Source: a virus (taxonomy: Duplodnaviria; Caudoviricetes). From it: a DNA stretch of 33,298 nt. Shown here piece by piece: positions 2,784 through 19,553 of this stretch. Made by a program: the position numbers and the translations under genes. The stretch is taken from positions 1 through 33,298 of the IMG/VR virus record IMGVR_UViG_3300030372_004742; one strand, 5' to 3'. Each line of letters begins with the position of its first letter. Positions within the stretch are counted from its first letter, which is position 1. The notes beneath the pieces were generated by a model. It was not told the origin of the DNA and did not search any database. It worked only from the letters and a program-made list of their open reading frames with translations.

Positions 2784-3464
2784 CTAGTACCAGTAACTAT
2801 TGCTTGTCACGTTCTGGACGTAGTTCGCTCCAGCGGTGTTCCTGTTGGACAGATAATCAACGAGCTCACGTTCACGAATCTGTAGCTGCATCATAATCTG
2901 CTCGCTCGTGGCGGCATCTGCGATGGCGTACTGCTTGTATGCGTACAAGGCAATCATGTCGTGAAAGGCATCGAGGTCGTCGATGAAGTTCGCTGGAGGA
3001 GCCTGTCCTGCTTGAAACTGCACGTTGTGCCCAGGGACGTATGCAATCTTGAGAGGGCGCTGAATCACATAGTTGAACATCAAGATGTTGCTGGTGAAGA
3101 ACACCGCGTCTCCAGTGCTCTGCAATGCCTCTAGGGACTGCACTGAGTTGAACACCAGAGATGGCAGGTTGTTGGTCTGGTCAACAATGTAGACGCTCAA
3201 GAGCGAAACGAGCCGGTCCTGCACAGCGGCAGTTGAGCCCAGAATGGGCGCAGGAAGCGCCGACAGGTCCACTTGAACAGAGCCAGGGGCCGCCACGTCG
3301 ATCGTCCTGGCGTAGATGTTGGGGTCGATGTTAGTGACCTTACGCCTGAACTCGATGTAGGCAAGGTTGAGCATGTTCTCAACCAGAGAGTCTGGCACAA
3401 AGGTCTGGTCAGGCTCATCGATGTAGGTGCGGAAGGTGTTAATGACCTGGTCTACGGTAGCCAT
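2784..3464 (-). CDS. Head-tail adaptor / tail tubular protein A-like
   Basis: 226 aa directly after the portal. Helical N-terminus (VDQVINTFRTYIDEPD...MLNLAY) and C-terminal FHDMIALYAY pattern typical of adaptors. Confidence 0.6.
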   Translation of the reverse strand: MATVDQVINTFRTYIDEPDQTFVPDSLVENMLNLAYIEFRRKVTNIDPNIYARTIDVAAPGSVQVDLSALPAPILGSTAAVQDRLVSLLSVYIVDQTNNLPSLVFNSVQSLEALQSTGDAVFFTSNILMFNYVIQRPLKIAYVPGHNVQFQAGQAPPANFIDDLDAFHDMIALYAYKQYAIADAATSEQIMMQLQIRERELVDYLSNRNTAGANYVQNVTSNSYWY

Positions 3465-5398
3465 TAGAGCCCTCCTGTGCCTGGACCGCGACCCATCAGC
3501 GCCTCGCTTCTGCCGGTCAGGAGTCTCTCAGCCTCAGCCATAGAGCCCGCGCGCGTGGCCGCTGCGCTCTGCTCTTGGATAATCTGCTCCTGGGTGTTCG
3601 GAGACGCTGGGGCTGCCATGTTGGCCGCCATTGTTTGCGGGTTGAGGGTGGGGGGCTGAGAGCGCGGGAAGACCTTGTTCGCGCCCAGAAGGGTCCGGTA
3701 GACCTCGTCTGGTTGGCCTGCCGCCTCGATGCTGAGCAGGACATCCCTCAAATAATCCTGTCGCTCTGGTGTCAGCAGGTAGAACTCTTCTGTCTGCATA
3801 AACTCCCCAAAGACCTTACCGAAGGCCTCGAGGTCATCAGACATAAACACCTCCACTCGCGCTCCCAGCCTCGCCGCGTCCAACATGTCCTTGGCGTGAG
3901 CCATCGCCTGCACCTTCTCGCTTACAAAGGCGTTGCCGGTGCGGAAGCTCAACTCTTGCAGCGCCTGCTGCGGTGTAATCATGCCGGCCTGCACAAGCTC
4001 CATCACCTTGGCGTCTCGGTCCTGAGCCTCATCCCTGAACAGGGAGCCGGTCTCAATGAACACCTCTGGGACATCCACGATGTTGGTGCTCTGGATAGAG
4101 GCGAAGGTGACTCGCCCATACTGGTCGAGCATGCTCATCATCTTGGCCTCGGTGTAGAACTCCTTCATGAGTTCCAGAACACACCGGGCCATGGTTGCCG
4201 TGCCCTTCTCGATAGCCGCTTGGCTAATCTGAAGCTGGCTGGTGTCGTGGCTGGCCAGGGCCTGGATGGCCTTGCCGCTGGTGACGCCTACGGCTCGCTT
4301 GCCCAGGGACACCGAGTGCAGGCCCGCTACGTCGCCCATCTCCGCCTGTAGGCGCGTGATGTTATCAGCGATGTAGGACGGCAGAGGGGCTGCGGCCACC
4401 TGCTGTGGCGTGCCTCCTGCTGCGTTGTAATAGATTTTCTCACCGGGCTTGCTGGTGATGGCGTGGGTCGACACCCCAGCGGTCTTGGGCACCAGCCATT
4501 TGGGGTTGCCCATGAGCTCCACATTGTGGACGACCTGAGAGCGCGCTCGGTTGTAGAGCATCTGAAGGTCTACGAGCGGCTCAATTAGGCCCTTGCCCCA
4601 CAGACGGCGGGGAATCTCGGTGTATCGAATAATCTGGACGGGGAACGTCTTGGTAGGAATCTGCTTCTGCTTGAACAGATAGGTGCTTCCAGTGACGACC
4701 GCGTGGCGTCCATCGCGCCAGTAGATGTCGAAGACCTCAACTCGGTCCTTGGGAGGTCCTTCGTTTGGAGCGGGATTAATCTGGCCGTAGTCAGGCTCTT
4801 GTGGAGCGGGAGCGTTTTCAATCTCTTCAGCCTTGTCCGGGTAGGCCTCTTTTAAATCTTCACGGTCAACGTATGACCGGAGTCCGACCCATCGACTGTC
4901 GTCAGGATTAATGACTGAGTGCTCGAAGAAGATGTCGTAGGCTCCAACGGCCTCGGTCCTGACACACTCCATGCCTGGGTCGTAGAAGGTGTGTAGAGCC
5001 GCAGTTCCTGTAGTGAGGAGCCACTTGATGAGTTGCTCGATGGTCTCTGGCACGTCGTCTTTGTGCCAGTAATAGCGAAGGGCTGTCTCAGATGACTTCG
5101 CTTTGAGAATGTCCTCATAGGATGGGCTCGCTGGGATGACCACAACGCCGGGGTAGGCCAGGGCCAACCGGGACAAGACGTTGCGGTAGATGTTTAAAAG
5201 CAGGTTGACCGTGACTCGAGACGACCCCTCGGTCGATGTCGCGGTGACGTAGGCGGCGAGGCGCTTGTCGTATGACAGCCACTGGCGACCCTCAAGGAAC
5301 TTCAGGGACAGGTTCCATGCGCGACGCACCGCAATCTTATCGCGGCGCGAGTCGTTAATCAGGCCCTGGATGTTCTGGGGGAACTCTTTAGCCATCAA
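3464..5398 (-). CDS. Portal protein (P22-like)
   Basis: 644 aa. FLEGRQW...VNLLLN at the N-terminus, WGKGLIEPLVDLQMLYNRARSQ, GNPKWLVP, SGKAIQAL and a Q/P-rich tail. Confidence 0.85.
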   Translation of the reverse strand: MMAKEFPQNIQGLINDSRRDKIAVRRAWNLSLKFLEGRQWLSYDKRLAAYVTATSTEGSSRVTVNLLLNIYRNVLSRLALAYPGVVVIPASPSYEDILKAKSSETALRYYWHKDDVPETIEQLIKWLLTTGTAALHTFYDPGMECVRTEAVGAYDIFFEHSVINPDDSRWVGLRSYVDREDLKEAYPDKAEEIENAPAPQEPDYGQINPAPNEGPPKDRVEVFDIYWRDGRHAVVTGSTYLFKQKQIPTKTFPVQIIRYTEIPRRLWGKGLIEPLVDLQMLYNRARSQVVHNVELMGNPKWLVPKTAGVSTHAITSKPGEKIYYNAAGGTPQQVAAAPLPSYIADNITRLQAEMGDVAGLHSVSLGKRAVGVTSGKAIQALASHDTSQLQISQAAIEKGTATMARCVLELMKEFYTEAKMMSMLDQYGRVTFASIQSTNIVDVPEVFIETGSLFRDEAQDRDAKVMELVQAGMITPQQALQELSFRTGNAFVSEKVQAMAHAKDMLDAARLGARVEVFMSDDLEAFGKVFGEFMQTEEFYLLTPERQDYLRDVLLSIEAAGQPDEVYRTLLGANKVFPRSQPPTLNPQTMAANMAAPASPNTQEQIIQEQSAAATRAGSMAEAERLLTGRSEALMGRGPGTGGL

Positions 5399-5745: not shown

Positions 5746-5938
5746 GTGATTCCTCCTCAGCGTAGATGATGTCCATCATGGGTTGGTTGTGTTCGACAAC
5801 CATGTCCCGTTCACGTCGTTCGGCCCGCTCATCTGACTCCTTCTCGCAAAGAAGCCAGATGTAGCGGGCCAGTAGCCCTAGGCATAGCGCCCCCATGAGT
5901 GCCAGGGTGAGCAGGCAAAACATGAGAGCGCTATGCAC
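5729..5938 (-). CDS. Small membrane protein
   Basis: 69 aa, GGAGG SD, N-terminal hydrophobic helix followed by an acidic/charged tail. Confidence 0.55.
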   Translation of the reverse strand: MHSALMFCLLTLALMGALCLGLLARYIWLLCEKESDERAERRERDMVVEHNQPMMDIIYAEEESHGYGT

Positions 5939-5974: not shown

Positions 5975-7372
5975 TTAGACGTCGAATCCGCACAGAATCG
6001 CGTTCTGGTTCGGGTTCGTGGTGACGGTGTTGTAGTACCATCGGTAGTAACCCTCGTAGGCGTCGACTCCCGCAACACCCACGCCAGCGCGCGCCAGGAC
6101 GCTTCCGTCCAGGTCCGCGAAGCCGTGAGCCTCGAGCTCCAGCACCTTCCAGGTCGAGAGCTTGAGGAAGATCATTCCTCCGCCCCCAACGTGACGGGCC
6201 GTCTTGATGGGAAGCCCACCATACGACAGTCCAGAGAATCCACCGTCGAGCTTGTTGGCGCGCTCTCCGCTGGTGTTCATCACCGCAGCGGAAGTGTTTG
6301 CCGTAAGCTGGAACAAGGCGGCGTACTGCTGACGCGCCAGCGGGCTGATGAGGATGCAGTCAGGCTCCTGACCGGAGAGCTGATGCACCTGGTCCATCGC
6401 CGCCTGCATACGCGGAAGCGCCAGCGCCGCACGGGCCTGAGCGCCACCCACGACCTGCGTGATGATGGTGCTCTGGAGAACGGGGAACTCCGTTCCACTC
6501 GCAGGGCTGAAGCGGTTGACGCCGAAGTGCGCACGAGAGCCGAGGTTCTCGAAGATTCCACGAGGCTGCTGGTCGAGAGCGTTGGTGACGGCAGTGGCCG
6601 GAGCCGCCTGCTGTGCAGCCGAAATCACAACCGCAACCGCAAACCCGTCGTCGGTGGGCGACGTGTCGTAGTTGGCACCTGCGCCGTTGAGGTCCACAAC
6701 CTCAAGGGTGATGGTGCGGTTGATGACATCCGTGGCGGTCAACTGAATCTGAACGCAGTTCGGAAGAACGGTGTATCCCAGAGCAGCGTTTCGGTCCACG
6801 CGAACGAGGTCGACCAGAAGCTCGGTGCTACCAGATGCGACAACGGCAGCGCGAAGAGCCTCGATCTTCTCGATGTCTCCGAAGCACTCCCAGGTGTCGA
6901 CAGCAGGAGCAGCACCAGCCGTAGCCTTGTGCTCGTTGAGGAAGCCGACGACGCGACCGCCAGAAATCATGGCGTTGTCCGAGGCCGACTTCACGTCGTT
7001 GACGAGCTTGTCCATCTCGGCTTCCATCCAGCCGATGAAGGAGTTTGCTCCGCCCTTACCAGCAGCCGACATGGCAGGGCCGGTAATCTGGAAACGACCG
7101 TAGAGGAAGTGCGCGTTCACCTGAAGCTGCTGGTATCCCTGGTCGCCAGCGGGCGGCAGGGTGGTCGCCGCAGTTCCATCGGACTCGCCACGGAAGCCGA
7201 CGCCCGTGTTGCGCGAAACGTGGATGGGGATGATTGCAACGCGACCGTTCCAATCGACAGTGGCCTTGGTCATCAGGTCAAGGACCATGACCTCATTGTT
7301 GAGCTGCTCTTGAACAGGCCCAAGGTAGAACTCCTTGAGAATGTTACTCAGCGTAAGCTGTGTGGCTGGCAT
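5975..7372 (-). CDS. Major capsid protein (HK97 fold)
   Basis: 465 aa after the scaffold, AGGAGG SD. ILKEFYLGPVQEQLNNE, LYGRFQITG and C-terminal YYRWYYNTVTTNPNQNAIL motifs. Confidence 0.85.
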   Translation of the reverse strand: MPATQLTLSNILKEFYLGPVQEQLNNEVMVLDLMTKATVDWNGRVAIIPIHVSRNTGVGFRGESDGTAATTLPPAGDQGYQQLQVNAHFLYGRFQITGPAMSAAGKGGANSFIGWMEAEMDKLVNDVKSASDNAMISGGRVVGFLNEHKATAGAAPAVDTWECFGDIEKIEALRAAVVASGSTELLVDLVRVDRNAALGYTVLPNCVQIQLTATDVINRTITLEVVDLNGAGANYDTSPTDDGFAVAVVISAAQQAAPATAVTNALDQQPRGIFENLGSRAHFGVNRFSPASGTEFPVLQSTIITQVVGGAQARAALALPRMQAAMDQVHQLSGQEPDCILISPLARQQYAALFQLTANTSAAVMNTSGERANKLDGGFSGLSYGGLPIKTARHVGGGGMIFLKLSTWKVLELEAHGFADLDGSVLARAGVGVAGVDAYEGYYRWYYNTVTTNPNQNAILCGFDV

Positions 7373-14091: not shown

Positions 14092-14931
14092 CTAAAGCCC
14101 GCACATTCCCTCGCACTCGCCATTCCACAGCGAGAACATCGTTTGCTGGCCACCATCGAAGTCCACCTCATCAATCGGAATCCGAGAGCGGTGGAGGAAC
14201 GGTTCGCTCTTAACCCCGAACGCGCCCTTGTCCCGCCAAGCCGAGCGGACCATGCGCTCAAAGGCAATAATGCGCTCGCGCTCTACAGGGTCGGCCATTA
14301 ACGCCTTCCACTCAGTGTTGTCGTGGAACGGGCAATAAGAACAGGCGCTCCTTGGCGTGACCATGCCCACAGAGTCCAGATACTCAATGCAGTGGGTGCG
14401 CTTCCAGCCCATCTCAATGAGCGGGTACCTGTTGAGCTTCCACGACTCCTTGGCAGGCTTCATGCGGCTGGACTCATCGACAGAGATGCCAATCCAGACC
14501 TCGACCTGTGGCTCCGCGTATCTCTTGCGCTTGATGCCAGCCCAGCCTCTGAGGAACTGGTTGATAGGCTGTAGCTTGAACTTCAGCGTGCAGCCCCGCG
14601 ACATAGGGGCTGACCGCCCCATTCCGTCCGCCACCCAGAACGGCGGTTCGGCGTGGTTGCTCTTTTTGCCAGCGTCCACTGCGATTCTCAGGTCCTCAGA
14701 CAAGGACGTGGCCCGCGACACCACCTCAAGCTGTGCCCCGTTCTCCTCGATAACCACCCGGCACTTCTCCAGGTGGTCGTACACAGCCACTGGCTCATCA
14801 CCGGTATCTGCGAACACGTACATCTCAGGGGGTTCGCCAACAACCGACAGCAGCCGCTCATCACGGGTCGCCGCTAGTAGGGCCAGCGTCGTGCTCTGCA
14901 CCCCGGCCCCGAAGCTCATGACCTTTTTCAT
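14092..14931 (-). CDS. PAPS-reductase-like adenine nucleotide alpha-hydrolase
   Basis: Likely start ATG 14931. PP-loop SFGAGVQST, FADTGDE, CTLKFK, WIGISVDESSR, YPL, SACSYCPF and C-terminal ECEGMC. Confidence 0.85.
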   Translation of the reverse strand: MKKVMSFGAGVQSTTLALLAATRDERLLSVVGEPPEMYVFADTGDEPVAVYDHLEKCRVVIEENGAQLEVVSRATSLSEDLRIAVDAGKKSNHAEPPFWVADGMGRSAPMSRGCTLKFKLQPINQFLRGWAGIKRKRYAEPQVEVWIGISVDESSRMKPAKESWKLNRYPLIEMGWKRTHCIEYLDSVGMVTPRSACSYCPFHDNTEWKALMADPVERERIIAFERMVRSAWRDKGAFGVKSEPFLHRSRIPIDEVDFDGGQQTMFSLWNGECEGMCGL

Positions 14932-14976
14932 CTCATCCCACCCTTTGGCACACGCATTGCTACGCGCGCTCGCTTG

Positions 14977-15103
14977 AAGTATAATACTTACTAGTACTCT
15001 CCCCAGACTGACCACTCCCCCCAAGGGAGTGGGCATGTCTGGGAGTGAGAGCGTCTCTCACCGCGCATGCGTACGCGCGCCTGGGGGGCGCGCTACGATG
15101 CGC
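14977..15103. other. Cluster of palindromes and three tandem hairpins
   Basis: aagtat-a-atactt 14977-14989, tactagta 14989-14996, hairpins at 15002-15043, 15045-15061 and 15063-15103. Confidence 0.7.
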
Positions 15104-15110
15104 TGAGTCC

Positions 15111-15362
15111 TCACCCATCTGCGGTCAGTCTGGCCAACGTGGTCCCCAGGGCAGTGGCTAGCTTACGCCACACCTCAAACGAACCAATCCTGTCCCCGTT
15201 CTCCAACCTCGAGATGTGAGAGGCACCAATACCGCTCGCATCAGATAGAGCCTGCTGAGACATACCCATCTTCAACCTACGCTTCATCAACCTCTGGCCT
15301 CGAGTCACAGCAGAAGACTGCTTCTCTTGCGATATCGGGCTCGTCAACTTGAGCTCACTCAT
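15111..15362 (-). CDS. XRE/Cro-CI family HTH regulator
   Basis: RRLKMGMSQQALSDASGIGASHISRLENGDRIGS...KLATALGTT; AGGAGGT SD. Confidence 0.92.
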   Translation of the reverse strand: MSELKLTSPISQEKQSSAVTRGQRLMKRRLKMGMSQQALSDASGIGASHISRLENGDRIGSFEVWRKLATALGTTLARLTADG

Positions 15363-15382: not shown

Positions 15383-15411
15383 TTGATAGTACGGTACTGA
15401 CACGCTGTCAA
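15383..15411 (-). promoter_or_regulatory. Putative leftward promoter with overlapping palindrome
   Basis: TTGACA on the - strand (15411-15406) is half of TGACA-CGC-TGTCA. The -10 is uncertain: TACTAT at 14 nt or TATCAA at 17 nt. Confidence 0.5.
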
Positions 15412-15870: not shown

Positions 15871-15899
15871 TTGACACCCTGTCATGGGCATGGTCCTAT
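15871..15899 (+). promoter_or_regulatory. Putative rightward early promoter with overlapping palindrome
   Basis: TTGACA 15871-15876, 17 nt spacer, TG-n-TCCTAT. TGACA-CCC-TGTCA at 15872-15884. A hairpin begins about 7 nt downstream. Confidence 0.55.
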
Positions 15900-15954
15900 G
15901 GCTTCACCGTCGGGAACCCCCGAACGGTCAACAACCCACCCGGAGAACCGACCC

Positions 15955-16167
15955 ATGCAAAACCGAAACGCCAAGTTCGCCCTCAGCGCCGCTGCAAACG
16001 CTGTCGACAGGCTCGACCGAGTCAGCGCCCTTCGCCCCGATTGCGCCGCCACTATTGAGGCATTGGGAGCCGCCCTTACCGTCGCACATGAATGCGCCAA
16101 GGACTTGGGAGACCGAGACATGGAAGGCCACTACTCGGAGCGAATTTTCGAGATGATGTTCCGCTAG
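15955..16167 (+). CDS. Early hypothetical protein
   Basis: ATG 15955 after GGAG; 70 aa, helical. Confidence 0.65.
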   Translation: MQNRNAKFALSAAANAVDRLDRVSALRPDCAATIEALGAALTVAHECAKDLGDRDMEGHYSERIFEMMFR

Positions 16168-16255
16168 GCCTCGTGCTTCGCTTCGCACAGGGGAGCCCCT
16201 CTCCCCTGTGTCCAGCGCGACACGATGTCACGCCAACAACCAAAGGGGGGCCATC

Positions 16256-16552
16256 ATGGCCAGCAAGAGCACAAAGCAGGATATCAGTTTCGGAGACGTA
16301 GACGGCTTCTCATGCGCGGCTCCGTACCGTGGCAAGGGACCTGGCTTCCAATTGCACGCTTCGATTGATGATAGCGACGATGGGCATGGGTTCCCTGTGT
16401 ATCTGGACGCCACCGCCATCATAACAGGGCCCGACGCTAGCGCCTTCGTAGACGCAATCCAGGCGCACGGAACCGAGATCTACCGCCTGCGCCGCGAGAT
16501 TGACCGGCTCAAGAGCGTGGCCAATCAAGCTCGTGCCCTACTTGGCGACTAG
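16256..16552 (+). CDS. Early hypothetical protein
   Basis: ATG 16256 after AAAGGGGGG; its stop abuts the ribozyme. Confidence 0.7.
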   Translation: MASKSTKQDISFGDVDGFSCAAPYRGKGPGFQLHASIDDSDDGHGFPVYLDATAIITGPDASAFVDAIQAHGTEIYRLRREIDRLKSVANQARALLGD

Positions 16553-16612
16553 TCGAAACGTCCAACGGGACGTCTGAGGGAGATAGCCTACCCGTACTGA
16601 AGAGACAGGCTA
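16552..16612 (+). ncRNA. Type II hammerhead ribozyme with pseudoknot
   Basis: Stem II guc/gac; GAAA 16555-16558; stem III cgucc-aacg-ggacg; GUC cleavage triplet 16572-16574; stem I ugaggg/cccgua; CUGAAGA 16597-16603; loop uagccu pairs with 3' aggcua. Confidence 0.92.
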
Positions 16613-16648
16613 AACAACCCAACAACCCAGCAAACAAGCGAGAGAATC

Positions 16649-16894
16649 ATGCGATACCCGATTGCGCCCGGACCACACACACGGGACAAGCTCGTTGCCT
16701 ATCTGAACAGGCTACAGAGCACCATCACCTTCCAGCTTGCCCAGATTACCGTCGCGTTGCGAGACGAGCGCGAGGGCCTGTTCGGGCCCAATGGACAGTG
16801 GGAGCACATCGAACGCTACGTCGCCGACCAAGGCGAACTAATGCGAGAGCTTGCCGACGTCAGAGCCGAGATTCGGCGCGTGGAGGGCTGCTAG
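16649..16894 (+). CDS. Early hypothetical coiled-coil protein
   Basis: 81 aa ORF after the ribozyme and a CA-rich leader. Confidence 0.7.
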   Translation: MRYPIAPGPHTRDKLVAYLNRLQSTITFQLAQITVALRDEREGLFGPNGQWEHIERYVADQGELMRELADVRAEIRRVEGC

Positions 16895-16895
16895 C

Positions 16896-17801
16896 ATGAA
16901 CGCACTAACGACCACACTCACGCGCACCATGGCAGTCGTCGACGCCTACCGCGTGCGAATTCGCAACGGTGAGCGATTCACCATGTCAACCCAATGCGCC
17001 ATGGTGCGCGAGGGTCGAAACCTTGACGCGGTAGCTATCCAGGCTGCGCTCATCCTAGAAGGCAAGCGCGGGGTCTTGACGACGAGACAGACGAAGCTCG
17101 ACAAGGCACAAGCAGAGACCACGGGATTCATCAACCGAGGCCTCACCTTGGCCACGTCTCGCGAGGCGTCGCCGTTCATCGGGTCCGCGTTTGATGCCTG
17201 CATCGGAGCGACCGATGCGTGTCGTCTGGCGTGCGTCGGGTCGCGTACGGGTCAAGGTCGATTGCCTAGCAGCGCAATCGCTCGCATTGGGCGCACCATC
17301 GCGCTGCACGTCGACCCGGTGACGTTCTGGGCCCGTTACGACCGCGAAGTCGAGCGAGAGCAGCGCCGCGCCGAGCGCAAGGGGTACAAACTCGCTATGC
17401 GCTGCAACGTGGCCAGCGACCATGCGCACGTTGCCGCGCGTTCTGCTGCGACACATCCAGACGTGACGCACTACGATTACACAGCCATTACGGCCAACGT
17501 GCGGCGCGTGGATGGTGTGCGCCGCGTCTACTCGCTCAAGGATGGCGCACAGCGTCGCATGCTCGCGAAGCGCATGCTCGATGAGGGTCACGGGGTCGCT
17601 GTGGTGTTCGCTGCTAGCGCACGACGAAAAGAGCCACTGCCAGCCACCTGGAATGGCGCGCCAGTCATTGACGGTGACTTGCATGACCTTTGGTTCCTGC
17701 AAGCACCTGAGTCGGGTCCGTTTGTGGTCGGCCTTCGTGTGAAGGGCGACAGCGGCCAAGTGCAAGCGGCTATCGATGCCGGGTTCGCAGTCGCTGCATA
17801 G
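16896..17801 (+). CDS. GP88-family protein
   Basis: Start ATG 16896 after GGAGG. C-x6-C-x3-C (CIGATDACRLAC), RCNVASD, HYDYT, VAVVF, LPATWNGAPVIDGDLHD, VVGLRVKG. Confidence 0.85.
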   Translation: MNALTTTLTRTMAVVDAYRVRIRNGERFTMSTQCAMVREGRNLDAVAIQAALILEGKRGVLTTRQTKLDKAQAETTGFINRGLTLATSREASPFIGSAFDACIGATDACRLACVGSRTGQGRLPSSAIARIGRTIALHVDPVTFWARYDREVEREQRRAERKGYKLAMRCNVASDHAHVAARSAATHPDVTHYDYTAITANVRRVDGVRRVYSLKDGAQRRMLAKRMLDEGHGVAVVFAASARRKEPLPATWNGAPVIDGDLHDLWFLQAPESGPFVVGLRVKGDSGQVQAAIDAGFAVAA

Positions 17802-17895
17802 CTCGCACACCGGGCGCGCGTCGGAGCTTCGGCTCTGGCGCGTCACCGGGACCGTGAGTTCCGAAACCAGTAACCACATAGGAGCCCAGAAAATG
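17800..17895 (+). repeat. Structured intergenic element, copy 1
   Basis: ctcgc-aca-ccgg...gcgtcggagc-ttcg-gctctggcgc...ccgg-gacc-gtgag followed by gaaaccagtaacca-x-a-x-agga. Confidence 0.85.
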
Positions 17896-18114
17896 AGCAG
17901 CGATATCCTTTACTTCAACTGCGACAACATCCCACACACCGAGACGGGCGCTACTATGGCGCGCATGTTCAACAGCCGAGACGCGGCTATCAAATACGCC
18001 GAACTATCGCGCCAATACATTGACAATACCGAGCGCATCAAGACGAGCAAGCGTACCGTTCGGGTTGAAGGTGCGACGCTGACCGTCTGGGTTGTGACCT
18101 GGCGAAAGCGATAG
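17893..18114 (+). CDS. Early hypothetical protein
   Basis: ATG 17893 after AGGAG; flanked by the two repeat copies. Confidence 0.7.
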   Translation: MSSDILYFNCDNIPHTETGATMARMFNSRDAAIKYAELSRQYIDNTERIKTSKRTVRVEGATLTVWVVTWRKR

Positions 18115-18212
18115 GACTCGCGCACCAGGGATGCGCCGGAGCCTTCACGGGTTCCGGCCTGACCTGGGACCGTGAGCCAGAAACCAGTAACCAAACAGGA
18201 ACCAAGACGATG
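18114..18212 (+). repeat. Structured intergenic element, copy 2
   Basis: ctcgc-gca-ccagg...gccggagcc-ttcacg-ggttccggc...cctgg-gacc-gtgag followed by gaaaccagtaacca-x-a-x-agga. Confidence 0.85.
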
Positions 18213-18515
18213 AAAATCCGAGACCTCACACACCTAATCGAGACTCTTCGCCAGGTATTCGACCACACGAGCGAGCCCTTCGAGATGACCGTCTATCACC
18301 TGGCCCCAGGCGTCACGCTTCAACGGGTCCAGAACAAAGACCTGGCATGGGAGCACCTGAACCCACAGTGCCGAGACGACTGGCAGATATGCGACCGCAC
18401 AGAGCCAGGGGTTGTGCGACGAGTCACCGTGCGAACGTCCACAGGCGAGGCCACGCTAGACACCGTCCTTGCGCAGGCCTTCAAGGCCAGCCCAGACCCA
18501 CAGAACACCCTCTAG
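18210..18515 (+). CDS. Early hypothetical protein
   Basis: 101 aa, AGGA SD inside repeat copy 2. Confidence 0.7.
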   Translation: MKIRDLTHLIETLRQVFDHTSEPFEMTVYHLAPGVTLQRVQNKDLAWEHLNPQCRDDWQICDRTEPGVVRRVTVRTSTGEATLDTVLAQAFKASPDPQNTL

Positions 18516-18595
18516 AACGCATCCTACGCCCTGAAGGCAGGGCATCCTACCAACCAACCAAGCAAAGGCCCGTACGCGGGCAGGGAGGCAGCAAG

Positions 18596-18841
18596 ATGAG
18601 CAGAACGCGGCGATACGTGAGCGAGAGCGAGGTGCGCCAGGTCGCGGACACGGTTTGCAGGTCATGCGACTTCGTGCACCGAGGCGACACGGCGAGACTG
18701 CGGGAGATTGCCCGCGATGAGTTCCGAGAGATGGGCATCGAGCCCACACCCAGCCAGGTGGGCTACGCGGTCAAGTTGGGCCGCGCATCCTACGGCGGGG
18801 TCATCCGGTCCACTAAGGCCGCAATCTACGGGGGGCGATGA
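18596..18841 (+). CDS. Early hypothetical protein
   Basis: ATG 18596 after GGGAGG. Confidence 0.65.
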   Translation: MSRTRRYVSESEVRQVADTVCRSCDFVHRGDTARLREIARDEFREMGIEPTPSQVGYAVKLGRASYGGVIRSTKAAIYGGR

Positions 18842-19056
18842 TGGCTAGGCTAAGCACAGACCGTGAGATTCTTCGCGAGCGCATCTCATGGGCAATCTAC
18901 AAGGCGACCGGGGCGAAGACGCTTATCACCACGCTAGACGCGATTATGGACGCCGTGTGTGGTCCAGAGGAGGCGCGTTGCGAGCACTCCGCGTGCAGTC
19001 AGAACTACATCGACACCGGTGACACCGCGTGCATCAAAGGGGGCAACGATGAGTAG
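18838..19056 (+). CDS. Early hypothetical protein with Cys/His cluster
   Basis: ATGA overlap with the upstream gene; CEHSAC...C may bind metal. Confidence 0.6.
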   Translation: MMARLSTDREILRERISWAIYKATGAKTLITTLDAIMDAVCGPEEARCEHSACSQNYIDTGDTACIKGGNDE

Positions 19057-19333
19057 CAACGACCTGGCACCATTGGGCTGCGTCTTCGATGGCGACAACA
19101 TACAGCGCGACGACGACGTAGCACCGGACAGCTTCAACGACATCGACGCCGTGGCTTTTTGCCTAAGCTACAAAGGGGACGTGTCTGACCTTGGAGCCAA
19201 GGACCGCAAGCACCTGTATGGGTGCGCCATTGCCACCCTGGTGGCTTGCGTGGGCTACGGGGACGATTCGCCCCACGCTCAGCAGCTCGCGTGGGACTTT
19301 CTCAATGGCCTAGAGGGGGCCGACAATGGATAG
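19049..19333 (+). CDS. Early acidic hypothetical protein
   Basis: ATG 19049 after AAGGGGG, coupled to both neighbours. Confidence 0.65.
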   Translation: MSSNDLAPLGCVFDGDNIQRDDDVAPDSFNDIDAVAFCLSYKGDVSDLGAKDRKHLYGCAIATLVACVGYGDDSPHAQQLAWDFLNGLEGADNG

Positions 19334-19529
19334 CCTCATCACAGCCCTAGCCCTGGCCCTGGCTCTGCTCTTCACGAGCAGCGGCCCTGGCCCGGTGGGC
19401 ATCATCGACCACGGGGAGGATGGGGTCTGGGCTCTGGAGTGCGTGTACCCCGACAGCATAGAGCTAATCTACATCACGGGAGACTACCGCGAGGGCGAGC
19501 GCGTGCCCTGCCCTGTCGATTTCCCTTGA
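19326..19529 (+). CDS. Small exported/membrane protein, weakly DUF3006-like
   Basis: Hydrophobic N-terminus LITALALALALLF; IIDHGEDGVWALE...REGERV. Confidence 0.55.
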   Translation: MDSLITALALALALLFTSSGPGPVGIIDHGEDGVWALECVYPDSIELIYITGDYREGERVPCPVDFP

Positions 19530-19553
19530 CACCATCTGACAACCTGGCAGAAT
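19526..19553 (+). promoter_or_regulatory. Putative second early promoter
   Basis: TTGACA 19526-19531, 16 nt spacer, TG-n-CAGAAT. Near-palindrome TGACA-ACC-TGGCA at 19537-19549. Followed by hairpin agagcg/cgctct and a CA-rich leader. Confidence 0.55.

Follow-up and report, generated by a model that had tools for sequence, protein, structure and literature searches.

We studied a single contig of 33,298 bases, analysed over its whole length and referred to below as the window. Pfam and PHROG assignments identified genes for a terminase, a portal, a major head protein, a DnaB helicase, a Sak4-like annealing protein and an endolysin, and the terminase, portal, head and other phage genes show that it belongs to a tailed phage. 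Among public sequencing runs the best match, possibly the origin of the contig, is a marine metagenome; no RNA run was among the matches listed, which has no bearing on expression. A run of small genes in the positive strand, from about 15,900 to 19,500, contains early accessory genes, among which a GP88-family gene is the sole member with an assigned family. Two copies of a long RNA hairpin, named type A here, lie in this array together with other junction elements that stand in a fixed order (handles beginning with L denote the contigs and loci compared with the window):

15872..15900, positive strand: likely early promoter (putative role), with a -35-like hexamer within a 13-bp palindrome that is repeated at 15398
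16167..16229, positive strand: type B1, a sister hairpin located in the first gene junction, whose 11-bp top helix has a G-U pair at its base and a C-C mismatch beneath
16551..16614, positive strand: RNA resembling a type II hammerhead, with complete core and pseudoknot, beginning at a stop codon (RF02276, E 5.1e-5, 31.6 bits, below the Rfam cut-off of 37)
16896..17801, positive strand: GP88-family gene (PF17338, E 1.3e-18), found 5' of copy 1 in five of six contigs, with another gene there in L066
17802..17858, positive strand: hairpin copy 1, type A1, directly 3' of the stop codon at 17799-17801
17859..17892, positive strand: leader of copy 1, A/C-rich and mostly unpaired, with a Shine-Dalgarno-like AGGAG; 34 nt long up to the start codon
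17893..18114, positive strand: 73-aa ORF between both copies, with no Pfam or PHROG family; one contig lacks it, being joined at the 11-nt 3' end common to the hairpins
18117..18176, positive strand: hairpin copy 2, type A2; the stop codon upstream is 18112-18114
18177..18209, positive strand: A/C-rich leader with the ribosome-binding site of the next gene; occurs without the hairpin 5' arm in L008 and L055
18210..18515, positive strand: 101-aa ORF without a known family; L073 and the contigs of three of four runs lack it between copy 2 and the linker that follows
18497..18595, positive strand: type C linker, two short hairpins and a ribosome-binding site, which closes the variable block in relatives

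The candidate promoter at 15872..15900 was not called by a consensus promoter scan of the window. The 13-bp palindrome (15398 and 15872; also in L002, L003, L066 and L073) overlaps likely promoters on either side of the point from which the early array and a negative-strand gene for an HTH protein (15111-15362) diverge, and the palindromes are probably operators of this protein. A second sigma-70-like promoter with an extended -10 (19526-19553), kept in relatives, precedes another run of small, variable genes and the Sak4/SSB pair. A PAPS-reductase-like gene (14092-15036, negative strand, phrog_424) adjoins DnaB and possibly has a DNA-modification function. We rejected a host assignment from a GP88 relative (53%) in a metagenome bin labelled Rhodospirillaceae (L146), as being too distant and too easily mis-binned; in that low-quality sequence a long irregular hairpin was seen by eye right at the stop codon of the relative (5799-5865).

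Structure and conservation of the type A hairpins

Both copies form one unbranched long hairpin, with 21-22 bp in the minimum free energy (MFE) folds, located between the stop codon of one gene and the leader of the next. The earlier note had described two copies, each starting at a TAG, and its proposed stems agree with the MFE and centroid structures. Copy 1 presents, in order, a 5-bp outer stem, a 3x4 loop, a 4-bp stem, a 2x2 loop, a 12-bp top helix resting on a G-U pair, and a UUCG loop. Copy 2 has the same outer stem, a 5-bp second stem, a GAU/UGA loop and a 10-bp top helix without the basal G-U. The RCA/GACC loop that had been pointed out is present, but copy 2 closes one more G-C pair in the MFE fold and its middle loop is GAU/UGA instead of GC/CA. 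The core folding z on the positive strand was -4.20 for copy 1 and -4.53 for copy 2 against 200 shuffles; with wider windows, where the positive strand folded better, the negative strand gave -0.79 and -2.06.

The spacing around the hairpin is regular: the gap from the stop codon was 0-3 nt in all eight copies analysed below, and the distance from hairpin to start codon (17893 for copy 1 and 18210 for copy 2) was 33-34 nt in six of them, spanned by a leader rich in A and C and mostly unpaired. More than 20 nt separate the ribosome-binding site from the hairpin, and a translational operator was rejected because of this distance from the stem. The apical loops differ among type A copies, in which a search for conserved loop-to-flank pairing or a pseudoknot found none. 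A K-turn suspected by eye in copy 2 was also rejected: the K-turn consensus has a GA step on the bulged strand, which is missing here.

The 14 nt GAAACCAG following the hairpin are identical in both window copies and had been counted as part of the element. Among relatives this tail varies; it is absent after the second hairpin of L073 and present without the 5' arm in L008 and L055. It is a variable, separable leader outside the fold and not a core. In L008 (545-645) and L055 (2945-3045) a short ORF reads through the 3' half of the element and continues in frame into the 101-aa gene; a deletion fusing two phage lineages at a short stretch of common sequence appears to have produced it.

Pattern scans revealed full copies in one viral contig (L001/L002) and in five of 22 metagenome loci, one of which (L071) repeats the window sequence and was left out of the alignment; L073 carries a second copy, of type A2. 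The alignment and the covariance model built from it contain eight copies from six contigs, and a search of the window with a covariance model returned copies 1 and 2 as the only strong ones. Overall, 97.7% of the alignment cells were paired, with two-sided changes at 7 of the 22 pairs; none of 500 shuffles reached the value of the alignment, and slid controls were paired at 21-47%. These controls on eight copies constitute the evidence for covariation, which carries no formal significance value and comprises few independent events, the two-sided changes coming mostly from L065, whose top helix was largely rewritten at about equal length, and from the two A2 copies. The element had been described as covarying; all the covariation lies in the upper helix, whereas the five outer pairs never vary in the eight copies, so that none is shown in the outer stem. 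The lower stem, the 3x4 loop and the CA/GACC loop nucleotides were likewise invariant in all eight. Five substitutions listed within the hairpins in four other runs each preserve a pair, the mismatch or a loop. Since pairing was kept with two-sided changes across the eight copies, a recent duplication without selection on the fold, which the earlier note had set against a functional RNA, appears unlikely.

No Rfam 15 family matched the element in a search of the window at gathering level or in one of the region 17500-18700, and each copy searched alone had no match at E<=10, self-cleaving ribozyme families included. This single-copy mode does recover the neighbouring hammerhead; the wide searches missed hammerheads and are therefore of low sensitivity. 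The same database gave nothing on five close GP88 loci and only weak unrelated matches on eight distant ones. Pattern scans, whose matches were mostly chance, found the hairpin absent in 27 of 29 loci (the other two being the contig of L002 and a 3' half) and, in further sets, in 17 of 18 and in 16 of 22 loci. The top helix together with the tail was present in none of 51 bacterial-genome loci, four loci anchored on Sak4 or GP88 had no copy, and eight more distant GP88 loci had no such hairpin array. An apparent 5' arm in L077 was read as an artefact of the contig edge, and an upstream protein match between L066 and L073 as an artefact of translation through shared intergenic DNA. A keyword literature search found no paper on the motif. 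It was unmatched in the searched part of the text supplement of a catalogue of 10,006 viral RNA motifs (PMC10690425), whose alignment supplements may list it, and the portion of PMC5737381 consulted held nothing specific to the element.

The element is a real, uncatalogued, structurally conserved RNA hairpin, one of several linkers in the array. The pairing kept over eight copies and the missing Rfam match support the earlier proposal of a functional structured RNA outside the known families, for which a putative function is discussed below.

Linkers, gene exchange and a common top-helix geometry

Among the other linkers, the type B1 hairpin is found again in L002 and L066, while L002, L066 and L073 carry a second form, B2. 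The hammerhead lies 1.2 kb 5' of the element in the same array, and its homologue in L055 (1351-1412) shows, by eye, that both stem III and the pseudoknot have undergone compensatory changes. The leader after the window hammerhead matches the leader after B2 of L066 at 35 of 39 positions, and in a contig of run X18 a B2-like 3' end (18 of 19 letters, by eye; loose end at 16612) precedes the gene that here follows the hammerhead. On account of this leader match and this junction, hammerhead and B2 hairpin are seen to alternate in one slot; only B2 was found swapped in this way, and no swap with the hammerhead was seen for the type A hairpins. Another hammerhead-like core follows a small gene in L004 (about 7138-7190; regular-expression match only). 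The type C linker, found also in L002, L055, L065, L066, L073 and L077, contains an AACC-repeat tract and, inside it, the stop codon of the upstream gene. In L003, short tandem repeats (about 700-750 and 890-960) lie 3' of GP88 and its terminator-like hairpin, at the place taken by the type A element in the clade of the window.

The genes change at the borders of these linkers. A joint 17847-18166, passing through 11 letters common to both copies, was present in contigs of one of four runs; a joint 18177-18497 (short side 22 letters) was present in three of the four, and the same joint occurs in L073. In one contig the GP88 block was replaced by about 700 other letters. These joints come from assemblies compared at 80% likeness and therefore represent related phages, not events in this phage. 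Between its hairpins B2 and A1, in place of GP88, L066 encodes a 231-aa cysteine-rich protein (3074-3767, negative strand) with no Pfam match, and run X18 has the same replacement. The eight proteins encoded downstream of the hairpins have no mutual blastp match at E<=1e-3. Linkers of several kinds bound exchangeable gene cassettes, with strains swapping genes at the borders; this place of the element among several kinds of linker is absent from the earlier note.

A common geometry was evident when 19 long stop-codon hairpins, hand-picked by eye, were compared. They came from the window, from the close contigs L002, L055, L065, L066, L073 and L074, and from L004/L005, whose GP88 proteins are 57-59% identical. 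A top helix of 10-12 bp on a G-U above a 5' C mismatch was found in 14 of the 19, against 18 of 787 helices in a background census that replaced an earlier, too permissive one; homology among many of the 14 brings the number of independent lineages closer to two to five. The 14 include three AT-richer hairpins from L004/L005, and the five exceptions include window copy 2; the second copy of L073 also has no G-U/C signature. Within type A, the top helix up to the apical loop measures 11-12 bp in all six A1 copies and 9-10 bp in both A2 copies. The sister hairpins have the same helix geometry with a different loop sequence. In ten G-U-anchored stems, position +10 was not G-C in nine (background 105/331) and position +7 was G-C or C-G in all ten (background 219/331). 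A-U pairs recur in the top helix at positions +8 and +10.

A predicted processing signal and its alternatives

We consider the hairpins an mRNA processing and stabilising signal that doubles as a cassette linker, a reading to which we give about an even chance; that the element is a processing site, one of the roles suggested earlier, is likewise the best prediction, at evenly balanced confidence. The hairpins occupy the space from a stop codon to the leader of the next gene in the early operon, which would be transcribed as one long message. A host nuclease specific for double strands, putatively of the RNase III kind, is predicted to cut them close to the 2x2 loop, at 11-12 bp from the apical loop. 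Cutting would convert the long transcript into gene-sized, end-protected messages, each stabilised by the hairpin remaining at its 3' end, and the same conserved sequence would likely provide the homology for gain and loss of gene cassettes.

Known substrates offer parallels. E. coli RNase III requires an 11-bp helix between cut and tetraloop (PMC1540722), internal loops can limit cleavage by the enzyme to a single position, with a protective hairpin left at the 3' end (PMC1540722; PMC3867540), and T7 early mRNA is matured at single-cut RNase III sites (PMC8708148). The constant length of a helix free in sequence and the swap with a self-cutting RNA fit a processing role. Against it, the lower half of the hairpin is interrupted by the 3x4 loop after only 4-5 bp. 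The enzymes of E. coli and Aquifex are inhibited when proximal-box position 2 holds a G-C or C-G pair (PMC1540722; PMC3074117), and such a pair is present in seven of ten top helices in the natural register, with all type A1 copies among the seven, and in six of ten when the register is shifted by one; the register is assumed, and the rule, taken from E. coli and Aquifex, may not be that of the phage's host. B. subtilis preferences resemble those of E. coli (bioRxiv 10.1101/2023.03.12.532304). At double cuts made in vivo in E. coli the central positions are mostly paired (PMC6212723). On these grounds the element is not filed as a member of the T7 type, although the odds that it works like one are about even.

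The main rival, a tentative one to which we assign clearly less weight, is that the hairpins stay uncut. They would then stabilise or insulate the message against 3'-to-5' decay, or be bound, either by RNase III or by a phage protein reading the G-U/C mismatch and the RCA/GACC loop. REP hairpins block 3'-to-5' decay of the upstream gene, and the type A hairpin begins at the stop codon, with a lower stem and 3x4 loop that never change among its copies. The G-C at proximal-box position 2 predicts poor cutting, and binding of RNase III without cleavage is known (PMC1540722). However, the slot of a sister hairpin is held by a hammerhead, which points to cutting; the distance of the ribosome-binding site leaves no translational operator for a bound protein, and none of the 54 window ORFs scanned could be placed in a known RNA-binding or nuclease family.

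It is improbable, in our estimate, that the element is cut without RNase III and does the job of the hammerhead, either as a minimal ribozyme or as the target of an unrecognised nuclease; this nuclease would measure 10-12 bp from the loop to the G-U/C-mismatch motif.

A new small self-cleaving ribozyme, with the conserved internal loops as active site, seems very doubtful. The earlier note had called the element ribozyme-associated, which the neighbourhood bears out: a type II hammerhead stands in its array, and in prophages variable genes are flanked by hammerheads (PMC3088659). The invariant CA/GACC loop could also be expected of an active site. As a new ribozyme the element is poorly supported, though, by a single unbranched hairpin whose apical loops differ and lack conserved pairing with the flanks, whose tail is variable and separable, whose middle loop differs between A1 and A2, and whose sister hairpins share its helix geometry and not its loop sequence; nor did any Rfam ribozyme model match even at E 10.

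We hold it less probable again that the element is only a DNA repeat for cassette recombination, its fold incidental or the remnant of a duplication. The change of genes at its borders, the 3' half retained alone in L008/L055 and the invariant outer stem, as expected from repeated recombination, would agree with this. Yet the top helix changes in sequence while keeping its pairing and length, the five substitutions in other runs respect the fold, and the positive strand folds better than the negative strand relative to shuffles.

Least probable of all, attenuators or weak terminators grading transcription of the early operon would explain stable GC-rich hairpins directly after stop codons, and the PeSL stem-loops of T4-like phages do terminate (PMC2839356), but in all eight copies the 12 nt that follow the stem contain only 0-2 U, in keeping with the missing U-tract reported earlier, the scan of the window called no positive-strand terminator and no promoter at either element, and in the absence of a promoter there, termination would cost the downstream genes their transcription.

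Returning to the predicted processing signal, its nearest counterparts are the T7 RNase III signals of the R1.1 type: both are long, irregular hairpins that extend over about two helical turns and belong to an early phage message, here presumed to be polycistronic. As in the T7 sites, an internal loop lies 11-12 bp from the apical loop in the A1 copies, while in the A2 copies this distance is 9-10 bp. Unlike the T7 sites, the hairpins described here are GC-rich, have a G-C at proximal-box position 2 and two internal loops, present a shorter top helix in copy 2 and bound exchangeable cassettes, and their cutting is only predicted. PeSL cassettes of T4-like phages, which carry promoters and terminators and mediate the shuffling of ORFans, are comparable, as described in PMC2839356, in being repeated stop-to-start units of stem-loop and Shine-Dalgarno sequence with gain and loss of ORFans; relative to that description, the units here have no sigma-70 promoter called for each and no terminator signature, their hairpin is longer and irregular, and several linker types follow in fixed order. 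Clustered prophage hammerheads (PMC3088659; RF02276) are found in comparable slots, separating small variable genes, and the one in this array alternates with a sister hairpin in relatives, but the type A element has neither a hammerhead core nor a three-way junction.

Hairpins that punctuate a phage early operon are already known from T7. The purpose of phage ribozymes between small early genes is another matter: for hammerheads flanking variable prophage genes, cutting of long transcripts has been proposed, and the processing of polycistronic messages is, in the accounts of PMC3088659 and PMC6765202, only suggested. With hammerhead and plain hairpin alternating before the same leader, a direct comparison of the two is possible. 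A GC-rich hairpin that breaks the proximal-box rule of E. coli and Aquifex would test how universal RNase III recognition is. If instead the element is cut without RNase III, these phages would be swapping it with hammerheads, tuning the processing of each accessory gene.
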